Shown: positions 1,101 to 31,960 of the stretch, piece by piece
Layout of the letters: every line of letters starts with the position of its first letter
Numbering within the stretch: the first letter of the stretch is position 1
Assembly: GCF_006345805.1 (NCBI RefSeq)
Contig: NW_021826250.1
Span: forward strand, 1-35,906
Length of the DNA: 35,906 bases
Direction: 5' to 3'
DNA from: Octopus sinensis
Lineage: Eukaryota
Notes under the pieces: model-generated
What the model was told of the DNA's origin: nothing
Seen by the model: the letters and a program-made list of their open reading frames with translations, nothing else
Databases searched by the model: none
Translations under genes and position numbers: made by a program

Positions 1101-1571
1101 ACGTTTTCGTTTTTTTGTACTTTCACTTTAGCAAAAATGTAATTCATGAAGTTACTTAAACTAAATTATGTAAATAAATAAATAAATAATTCGAAAGTCA
1201 GAAACACATAAAAATGAAGGTGAAAGACCAGAACGCTAATACATTCTCGTTTATTTCTGATTTAGAAATCTCTAATCCGGGATAATAACGTTACACTCAT
1301 TATGGAGCGGGTTACGCTTATCAAGAATTGACCTTTGATAATACGGATTGGCGATCAATCAAAGATTTTGCTTGGACCGCAAAAGCGTACCATGATAACC
1401 ATTCACAATGCTCAAGATAACTTGTGATCTCGGATCGAAGCCTAATTTCCCCATGTAATTTATTATTCCTTTATCACTGATTCCCTTATCACGGTGCTTG
1501 TTCGGAACCAAATACGTATGATAAACGAGGATAAATGTATATACCTTTACGAAATACTAAATCCTATTCTT

Positions 1572-1815
1572 ATTTCTTTTTTTATTTCTTTATTGCCCAC
1601 AGGGGACTAAACATAGAGGGGACAAACAAGGACAGACAAATGGATTAAGTCGATTATATCGACCCCAGTGCGTAACTGGTACTTATTTAATCGACTCCAA
1701 AAGGATGAAAGGCAAAGTCGACCTCGGCGGAATTTGAACTCAGAACGTAACAGCAGACGAAATACCGCAAAGCATTTCGCCCGGTATGCTAACGTTTCTG
1801 CCAGCTCGCTGCCTT
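1572..1815 (-). mobile_element. Major tRNA-derived SINE, long-tail subfamily (3' part of the 5S-SINE chimera)
   Basis: Reverse complement of the family seen more than 15 times here: head AAGGCRGCGAGCTGGCAGAA, B-box-like GAGTTCAAATTCC, central GACTTTGCCTTTCATCCTTT..GGTCGAT..AAGTACC (resembles the Meta/Sauria-type central domain, from recall), tail ...GTGGGCAATAAAGAAATA. Confidence 0.9.
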
Positions 1816-1819
1816 TTAC

Positions 1820-1937
1820 GTTTACAGCACCTAGGTTTCTCAAGCGGTCACCCATCTATTTACTAACTAGGCTCGACTTTGCTTAACTTCGGTGATCGGA
1901 CGAGAACTGGTGTTTTCAAAGTGATATGGCCGTAAAC
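1820..1937 (-). rRNA. 5S rRNA: 5S rRNA, dispersed full-length copy (probably retroposed pseudogene)
   Basis: Minus strand reads GTTTACGGCCATATCACTTTGAAAACACCAGTTCTCGTCCGATCACCGAAGTTAAGCAAAGTCGAGCCTAGTTAGTAAATAGATGGGTGACCGCTTGAGAAACCTAGGTGCTGTAAAC (118 nt), a typical invertebrate 5S. Terminal helix GTTTAC/GTAAAC; box A AGTTAAGC; box C altered (TAGATGGG); no oligo-T terminator follows. Confidence 0.92.
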
Positions 1938-2134
1938 CACTAAATCCTATTCTTGACAAACTGAATCCTTTACTGGGGTTTAATTCAAAGTTTGAACGAA
2001 TCATTTTCTGTACGTCAATAAAAGTATTTGGAGTTTTATCAATAAAAATATCAATAGTTTTTGAGCGGGATTCATTCAAACTTCGAATTGTTTTCGTTGT
2101 TATGCAAGACAAGATTTAAAGAGAGAATTTACAC

Positions 2135-6809: not shown

Positions 6810-7430
6810 CACGCACGTTTCTGCCCCCGCGCTCAATGTTTCTGCATCCACGCTCAACGTTTCTGCCCCACTTCACCGTTTCCGCCCCCACACTCAACGT
6901 TTCTGCCCCCACGCTCATTATTTTTCTCCTGCACTCAACGATTCTGCCCCTGCTCTCAATGTTTTTGCTCCCGCGCTCAACGCTTCTGCCCCCGCGCTCA
7001 ATGTTTCTGCCTCCGCGCTCAACGTTTCTGCCCCCTCGCTCAATGTTTCTGCCCCTGTGCTCAATGTATCTGCCCCTGTTCTGAACGTATCTGCTCCCAC
7101 GCTCAACATTTCTGCCCCTACGCTCAACGTTTTTTCTCCCCTCGCTCAACGTTTCTGCCCCCACGCTCAACGGTTCTGCCCCTGCTCTCAGTGTTTTTGC
7201 TCCCGCGCTCAACGCTTCTGCCCCCGCGCTCAATGTTTCTGCCTCCGCGCTCAACGTTTCTGCCCCCTCGCTCAACGTTTCTGCCCCTGTGCTCAATGTA
7301 TCTGCCCCTGTGCTGAACGTATCTGCTCCCACGCTCAACATTTCTGCCCCTACGCTCAACGTTTTTTCTCCCCTCGCTCAACGTTTCTGCCCCCACGCTC
7401 AATGTTTCTACCATCCCGTGCTCAACGTGT
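6810..7430. repeat. 21-bp minisatellite, about 29 units, consensus CGCTCAACGTTTCTGCCCCCA
   Basis: Unit directly visible; the variant string TGCTCTCA(A/G)TGTTTTTGCTCCCGCG recurs at 6951 and 7183 (232-bp period). Confidence 0.95.
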
Positions 7431-7679
7431 CGGACCCCACGTTCTCTCATACCAGCAGAACCCATTCTTCTATCCCGTACCCTCTCCTCATACGCAAATT
7501 CCAGTATCCGTCCCATATTCCAGTAAGCCACTGCTAACATCTCTATACACATTAAGTCCGAAAGTACGAAATTTGTTTACTCATCTATCGAATTCGAATC
7601 TGCTTCACGGCTTTGAGTTGTGCAAAGATCTACATGTCTCTCAGTTCATATACCAATTGTGAGTCAACAAGAAGCCTCT

Positions 7680-30775: not shown

Positions 30776-31337
30776 AAAGGGTCCAAACATAAGCCCTAAC
30801 ATGTTGCAAACCTAGAGTCCAAATACATGTTCCAAACATAGTGTTCAAACATAAGCCCTAAAATGTTTCAAACAAGAACAGTAAGCGCGTATAACAGAGG
30901 ATCGTGGATAACGGAGAATCTAAGTAACCACGCATTCTGCTAGAAATAGTTGCCGGATTTCTCTGAAATAATGCCTTACCAACTTCAAAACGATGCATTG
31001 CTTAAATTCACTATAATTACATACATCCTGTAGTCATCCGAATAGACGGCGTAAGTTTGATATTTACGGGGGAAAAAAGATTAAAAAAAACACAACGTAT
31101 AAAAATAACAACATGATTGGGAAACCAAATTAATCAAGCGATGAGAAAATGAAATGAATGTAATTGTACGTTTCGGGTGGTGGTTGTTTGTCAGGAAAAG
31201 ACAAGTGGGCGAATGAAGCGAAAAAAAGAAAAGAATTTTTTAATTTAAATCAATGTTGATTTCAGTTTGGGTGCAAGGTGAAGAGAAATCAGTGAGTGAA
31301 AATGAGTAGAACACCAACCAATATTGCTCGACACTAA

Positions 31338-31960
31338 GGCAGCGAGCTGGCAGAAACGTTAGTGCACCGGACGAAATGCTTGCGGTATTTCGTCTGTCTT
31401 TACGTTCTGAGTTCAAATTCAACCGAGGTCGACTTTGCCTTTCATCCTTTCGGGGTTGATAAATTAAGTACCAGTTATGCACTGGGGTCGATATAATCCA
31501 CTTAATCCCATGTCTGTCCCCTCTATGTATAGCCCCGTGTGGGCAATAAAGAAATAATGTTTAAAGAAAGGTGGTGAGTTGGCAGAAATGTTAGCACGCC
31601 GAGCGAAATGCGTAGCCGTATTTCGTCTGCCGTTACGTTGTGAGTTCAAATTCCGCCGAGGTCGACTTTGCCTTTCATCCTTTCGGGATCGATAAATTAA
31701 GTACCAGTTACGCACTGGGGTCGATCTAATCGACCTATGTCTGTCCTTGTTTGTCTCCTCTATGTTTAGCTCCTTGTGGGTAATAATAAAGAAATAGGTA
31801 TTTCATCTATCTTTACTTCTGAGTTCAAGTTCCGCCGAGGTCGACTTTGCCTTTCATCCTTTCGAGGTCGATTAAATAAGTACCAGTTACGCTCTGAGGT
31901 CGATCTAATCGACTGACCCCTTCCCCAAAAATTTTGAGCCTTGTGCCTAGAGTAGGAAAG
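31338..31960 (+). mobile_element. Three-unit major-SINE cluster inside one 18-bp TSD
   Basis: AATATTGCTCGACACTAA at 31320-31337 and 31961-31978. Units at about 31338-31557, 31568-31796 and 31797-31960; the last starts at GGTATTTC and has the short tail. Confidence 0.9.

Follow-up and report, generated by a model that had tools for sequence, protein, structure and literature searches.

The window, the whole 35,906-nt stretch of Octopus sinensis DNA that we analysed (contig NW_021826250.1), contains a composite element read on the minus strand, in which a 5S rRNA copy, an AA linker and a full SINE follow one another within a 16-bp target-site duplication (TSD; Table 1). The 5S copy is complete, as the initial annotation had proposed: Rfam RF00001 aligns along its full length to positions 1937-1819 of the minus strand (103.8 bits, E = 6.7e-22). 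Its length had been given as 118 nt, ending at 1820; compared with a 5S gene of the matching class at C5:50.22 Mb, it is 120 nt long. Because solo copies of the same SINE begin at AAGG, the spacer between the two parts is 2 nt and not the 4 nt first read. The copy differs from this class II gene at six positions, two of which are common to other dispersed class II copies, and it carries a two-base variant that occurs once genome-wide. It retains the internal promoter sequence of 5S and lacks the conserved upstream element and the T-run terminator of the array 5S genes, so that it does not qualify as a functional gene. The flanking 16-mer is perfect and occurs exactly twice in the window, once at each end of the unit, against a chance expectation of 0.07 matches (with up to two mismatches); none of 100 shuffles gave two. 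One base separates the TSD from the 5S, and no T-run lies between 5S and SINE, both as annotated, but there is a T4 run inside the SINE body.

Table 1 Features of the composite 5S-SINE element in the window
Feature	Positions	Strand	Remark
TSD, copy at the 5' side of the element	1939..1954	+	empty site spans one TSD interval only
Single additional base separating TSD and 5S, probably non-templated	1938..1938	-	
Full-length 120-nt 5S copy, gene class II, without upstream element	1818..1937	-	ends at the mature 3' end
AA linker	1816..1817	-	presumably a short oligo-A on the 5S RNA or a non-templated addition
Full-length abundant SINE ('SINE B') with A-rich tail	1572..1815	-	
A-box-like motif in SINE head	1789..1803	-	read by eye
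B-box-like motif in SINE head	1729..1741	-	read by eye
T4 run in SINE body	1699..1702	-	would terminate Pol III before the LINE-like tail
3' tail like the 3' end of a zf-RVT-bearing LINE, presumed L1/Tx1 group	1585..1626	-	32/42 nt, hand count
TSD, copy at the 3' side of the element	1556..1571	+	

Elsewhere in the window we found five further near-full-length copies of SINE B and, at 6858-7447, a block of a 21-bp minisatellite that is duplicated about 232 nt apart. The list of stop-to-stop open reading frames offered no coding context worth pursuing at the locus. A stable fold of the whole element was considered and rejected, as it scored no better than shuffled sequences (z = -1.3).

The 5S copy and the SINE entered this locus as one insertion. 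In a related organism (E), one 795-nt contig, seen in two studies, runs from window position 2260 to 1956 and then directly from 1572 to 1171; it is without all 383 nt of 5S, SINE and one TSD, and its flanks are about 89-91% alike. This is the empty site that the initial annotation had suggested looking for, and neither a locus with only one of the two parts nor a 16-mer duplicated at the empty site appeared. In two other organisms (B and D), contigs from the right flank enter the element by 52 and 37 nt, while those from the left flank reach 28 nt into its tail, just below our 31-letter standard. These partial contigs make it likely that the insertion is common to B and D and younger than their split from E. 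An empty allele within the assembly itself was ruled out, the right flank being single-copy.

The partner is a major SINE, as had been claimed: a 16-nt motif from its head has 41,992 exact copies in the genome. Neither ARAGORN nor Rfam found a tRNA in SINE B, and Rfam reported no other family in it either; its putative tRNA derivation comes from the A-box-like and B-box-like motifs read by eye, whose identity we presume. A literature search for a candidate SINE name, 'Twhin', found no paper. The T4 run of the window's SINE body is present in 5 of 56 copies. By hand count, 32 positions of the last 42 nt match the 3' end of a LINE with a zf-RVT domain in its open reading frame (E = 4.9e-7; one of three frames tested was above the cut-off), which we assign to the L1/Tx1 group by assumption and not from a tree. 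This LINE is abundant (2,330 candidates) and ends in (TATC)n repeats (L252-L255, L257, L264 and L279). Since the link consists of similarity over a 42-nt tail and this LINE lies within (TATC)n, a sister family could be SINE B's true partner. SINE B is often followed by tandem partial units that start from an internal GGTATT site (L016, L018, L020, L082, L087 and others; 31335-31796 in the window), its TSDs often start with GGTA, and several chimeras are inserted into SINE B itself at the internal GGTATT site (L048 and L088).

Dispersed 5S copies with an attached retroelement are common in this genome. A 17-mer from the 3' end of 5S has 355 exact matches, and we inspected the first 100 listed, from C1 to the start of C5, a sample that follows position rather than chance and misses copies in which the 17-mer is mutated or cut. 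Nine of these 5S ends had the upstream element of true genes, and none of the nine had a partner. Among the 91 dispersed copies, many of them 5'-truncated in the 5S part, 84 had a partner motif in the sense orientation within 70 nt; the same motifs, which were drawn from the 91 loci themselves, were found in 103 of 4313 background windows (2.4%), in 3 of the 91 upstream flanks and in antisense at none of the 91. The 84 partners, under labels of our own, were SINE A heads (34), a short tail (27), SINE B heads (10), an RTE-like tail (4) and others (9). The partner was joined at its own 5' start in 46 of the 91 by head match and in one more by eye. A small RNA placed 5' of a non-LTR sequence and in its sense is the arrangement of chimeric retrocopies, and most of the dispersed '5S genes' called in the genome would be retrocopies of this kind.

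At 27 of the 91 loci a tail of about 55 nt, two-hairpin-like and common to several LINE and SINE families, joins the 5S near one breakpoint; the near-constant breakpoint suggests a remnant of protected or processed RNA. L245 (C4:198 kb) is tripartite, with 5S, a SINE A head and SINE B, possibly from a double jump. At L144 (C4:114.44 Mb), L141 and L142, a 5S with trailer is joined to unclassified sequence; the partner in L144 resembles coding sequence and could make this a 5S-mRNA chimera. Some chimeras were copied at the DNA level along with their flanks (C6074/C6075, comprising L093-L096; L051; L222/L223).

For the junction itself, the initial annotation had proposed counting copies and had posed a choice between a one-off chimera and a composite family. 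Loci that span the junction are indeed many: among the best 40 scored of 822 candidates, 39 align across it. A junction shared by many copies was not found, with 31 distinct junctions among 36 chimeras (the commonest in three loci), which speaks against a family with a uniform junction; these 36 have near-full SINE B partners and are enriched for likeness to the junction. The count would have misled, because the loci are many but their junctions, 5S classes and partners differ. The junction is unique in 145 of 153 copies, and 13 matches to the window's junction type continue into several different partners. Exact adjacency of a 5S end and a SINE B head occurs 16 times, 13 of them independent, where about 0.1 would be expected by our own arithmetic. 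By exact motifs this amounts to about 13 fusions per 42,000 SINE B copies, so roughly 0.03-0.05%. Judged from sequence, the 5S-SINE fusions would thus form a recurrent, genome-wide class of independent chimeras, neither a one-off nor one family, and the proposed either/or was wrong.

We next compared the dispersed copies with true 5S genes, which fall into three classes with arrays on C4 and a head-to-head pair on C5, C9721 and C9513 (gene loci L147-L151, L153 and L205-L207, at C4:131.8-131.96 and 135.79 Mb; L024, L036 and L037). In the terminal helix, a compensatory pair change distinguishes class I from class II, and one class Ib gene lies head to head with a class II gene about 0.75 kb away. 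A class-type 3' trailer, ending at or before the T-run, is retained in 70 of the 91 dispersed copies, and where both could be read the class of the trailer is that of the internal diagnostic site in 50 of 56. As the trailers match the copies' own 5S gene class, the donor was RNA, and in most copies pre-5S. The window copy joins at the mature 5S end and not at a trailer. Mature-end copies often carry A-rich linkers (4 of 11 with SINE B versus 0 of 34 with SINE A; Fisher p = 0.002, post hoc), a bias that would fit pairing of the cDNA end with the last bases of the acceptor. In yeast, 3'-extended and oligoadenylated 5S precursors are known (PMC12129344). Dispersed U6 copies were fused to the same partners at 15 of 21 readable loci, as judged by eye, and 6 of 14 extra loci were without a motif match. 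The U6 fusions follow the U6's own T-run and join the same SINE heads and tails (L159-L165, L186-L200). A U6 variant whose 5' stem is altered forms a tandem array at C1:141.93-141.95 Mb (L166-L185).

TSDs and trees bear on how such loci arose. In the set of 36, a TSD surrounds 5S and SINE together at 11 loci, one of these TSDs being of low complexity, and none surrounds only the SINE; the corresponding counts were 8 of 22 for solo SINE B copies and 1 of 108 for shifted controls. A genome-wide signal of long TSDs found no support (8 of 91 versus 17 of 455 controls, with several of the 8 apparently spurious). Because long TSDs are rare in the 91, the case for co-integration with partners other than SINE B (SINE A, short tails) is made by adjacency and by a few paralogous empty sites, namely chimeras inserted in repeats that resume after the partner (L070 and L071). 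In a tree of 50 SINE halves, from which 8 of 58 rows with less than 85% identity were dropped, chimeric and solo SINEs intermix (14 changes versus a shuffled mean of 15.9); the tree is weakly supported, with only 3 of 47 branches starred. In it the window's copy clusters with two solo SINEs (95/85). Five class II chimeras with short junctions were rejected as a clade (p-AU = 0.0015). The T4 run would cut a read-through transcript, which argues against a single Pol III unit for the window copy; that copy is likely a dead end.

As the origin of these chimeras we favour end-to-end template jumping that recurs during target-primed reverse transcription and is probably carried out by a LINE of the presumed L1/Tx1 group; we give this reading a probability of about 0.72. 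The LINE reverse transcriptase would prime on the tail of the SINE RNA at a nick, copy that RNA to its 5' end and jump from there onto the 3' end of a 5S RNA; copying would then run to the 5S 5' end, and resolution would leave the 16-bp duplication. Such LINEs would need their own 3' tail to start, and Pol III RNAs (pre-5S, mature 5S and U6) would therefore reach the genome almost only as 5' passengers. We infer both the jump itself and that the enzyme comes from an L1/Tx1-group LINE sharing the SINE's tail; template switching, already named in the initial annotation, is the best of the explanations considered. End-to-end template jumping and untemplated base addition have been observed in vitro with L1 ORF2p (PMC10830420).

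Ligation before reverse transcription, with 5S or pre-5S joined to SINE RNA by an RtcB-like activity and the fused RNA then retrotransposed, is a route shown for human U6/L1 (PMC6789731). It would leave the same DNA product, a full-length small RNA in sense within one TSD; U6 chimeras occur in this genome as well, and the short recurrent tail fragments could be cleaved RNAs. Most partners, however, begin at their native 5' start, where a triphosphate would be expected, and the 5S ends vary between trailer, mature and A-rich forms that would all be 3'-OH. RtcB needs a cyclic phosphate and a 5'-OH, and ligation by it falls off steeply when the donor ends in 3'-OH or the acceptor carries a 5'-triphosphate (PMC6789731). 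An intact 5S on native SINE starts fits this chemistry poorly, which bears on the question of jump versus ligation, and a jumping polymerase accounts better for the untemplated bases added at junctions. We consider the ligation route unlikely.

We think it improbable that the window element is a copy from a small composite 5S+tRNA SINE family with one master, although such families exist elsewhere, HaSE3 among them (PMC3272025). The window's exact junction does recur at C13:19.30 Mb and C12:22.27 Mb, and the three loci were not rejected as a clade (p-AU = 0.063). Yet the window's SINE is closer to other copies (92.7% identity) than to the same-junction loci (86-89%), and it sits with solo SINEs in the tree; its 5S variant is single, its junction type continues into several partners, and a junction of mature end plus AA could recur by itself. 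That the SINE inserted beside an existing 5S pseudogene, by chance or by targeting of 5S as in the zebrafish LINE Mutsu, might be argued from the abundance of SINE B, from the existence of LINEs that insert into 5S (PMC10946416) and from the many chimeras with partners other than SINE B, most of which show no TSD. At the window locus insertion next door is largely refuted by the TSD outside the 5S and the empty site without either part; TSDs around the SINE alone were absent from the 36, adjacent pairs far exceed the chance expectation, and the true 5S genes sampled carried no partner. We regard this last scenario as highly improbable.

One pair of loci may record a step further. The copies at C3:37.38 Mb (L228, 37.376) and C19:29.54 Mb (L229, 29.543) have a 15-nt junction in common that is absent elsewhere; they share a 5S variant that is rare (4 of 154 copies) but not private, and their flanks are unrelated. 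No 5S gene with the trailer of this pair is in the assembly. Their SINE halves differ at subfamily sites, and as a clade the pair (L082/L090) gave p-AU = 0.24. The pair may be one re-mobilised chimera, and the difference between the halves may reflect homogenisation with downstream tandem units or, alternatively, two jumps onto a lost paralog. A systematic screen of 153 copies for re-mobilised chimeras yielded nothing but two duplicates that were local or flank-identical, its rarity filter having missed L082/L090. As a tentative extension, and one that we doubt as a whole, several hundred independent jumps might have preserved, like fossils, the successive states of the 5S 3' end during processing (precursor of terminator length, trimmed, mature and oligoadenylated), with the first bases of the SINE selecting the end and at least one fusion (C3/C19) retrotransposed as a nascent 5S+tRNA SINE lineage. 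If true, the genome would keep the birth process of 5S-headed SINEs in bulk.

We found no description of an octopus 5S-SINE element in the literature; subscription papers, supplements, Repbase and Dfam lay outside the search and may hold an annotation. The available extracts of PMC5804259 and PMC10946416 list no such element. The origin of 5S-headed SINEs has been explained, in the extracts available, by a postulated event in which the template changes from a tRNA-SINE to 5S RNA (PMC4824008, PMC4758252 and PMC3272025), and the shape of the ancestor is also drawn from PMC4494074 and PMC7245038. The ancestor proposed for the SINE3/AmnSINE1, HaSE3 and MEG types has the layout seen here, with 5S added 5' of a tRNA-headed SINE; SINE3-type elements are amplified families with a uniform junction, whereas nearly every octopus junction is unique and the putative tRNA-type head is present in full. 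The hypothetical intermediate would thus exist here as a large, countable class, in which the frequency of fusion, the RNA ends accepted and the rarity of amplification can be asked about directly. Candidate reasons why almost none amplify are the missing upstream element and the terminator T-runs kept in trailers.

Among known chimeras, the mammalian 5S/L1 insertions (10.1101/2025.02.02.635956) are alike in that 5S is co-inserted with a non-LTR element inside TSDs. They are, as far as the available text goes, often in antisense and cut short at loops C and D, whereas none of the 91 octopus copies has an antisense partner and their 5S 3' end is intact, in a sample picked on that 3' end in which 3'-truncated copies go uncounted. 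Crocodilian SINEU-2 elements (PMC4494074) likewise record repeated independent additions of small RNAs to SINE 5' ends in a Tx1-rich setting; those extensions are derived from U1 and 3'-truncated, in contrast to the intact 5S and pre-5S of the octopus. The closest counterparts are the 'Group IV' chimeras that Doucet et al. 2015 (PMC4476161) described in platypus and lizard, with U6 joined to L2, to RTE or to the SINEs of these LINEs (U6-L2 and U6-Mon-1 of platypus, U6-AnolisSINE2 of lizard); in them a small Pol III RNA lies 5' of a LINE or SINE, in sense and as one insertion. According to the excerpts of that study, such chimeras are the only pseudogene form in genomes with stringent LINEs, and TSDs of L2-type chimeras are short or absent (PMC4476161). 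The octopus chimeras differ in that the donor is 5S rRNA, often full length and with an unprocessed 3' trailer, and in that they occur in an invertebrate, in hundreds of copies, with at least five partner types and with what is likely an L1/Tx1-group driver for SINE B. On the best reading, the window element behaves like the U6 Group IV chimeras and extends them to an intact 5S in an invertebrate.
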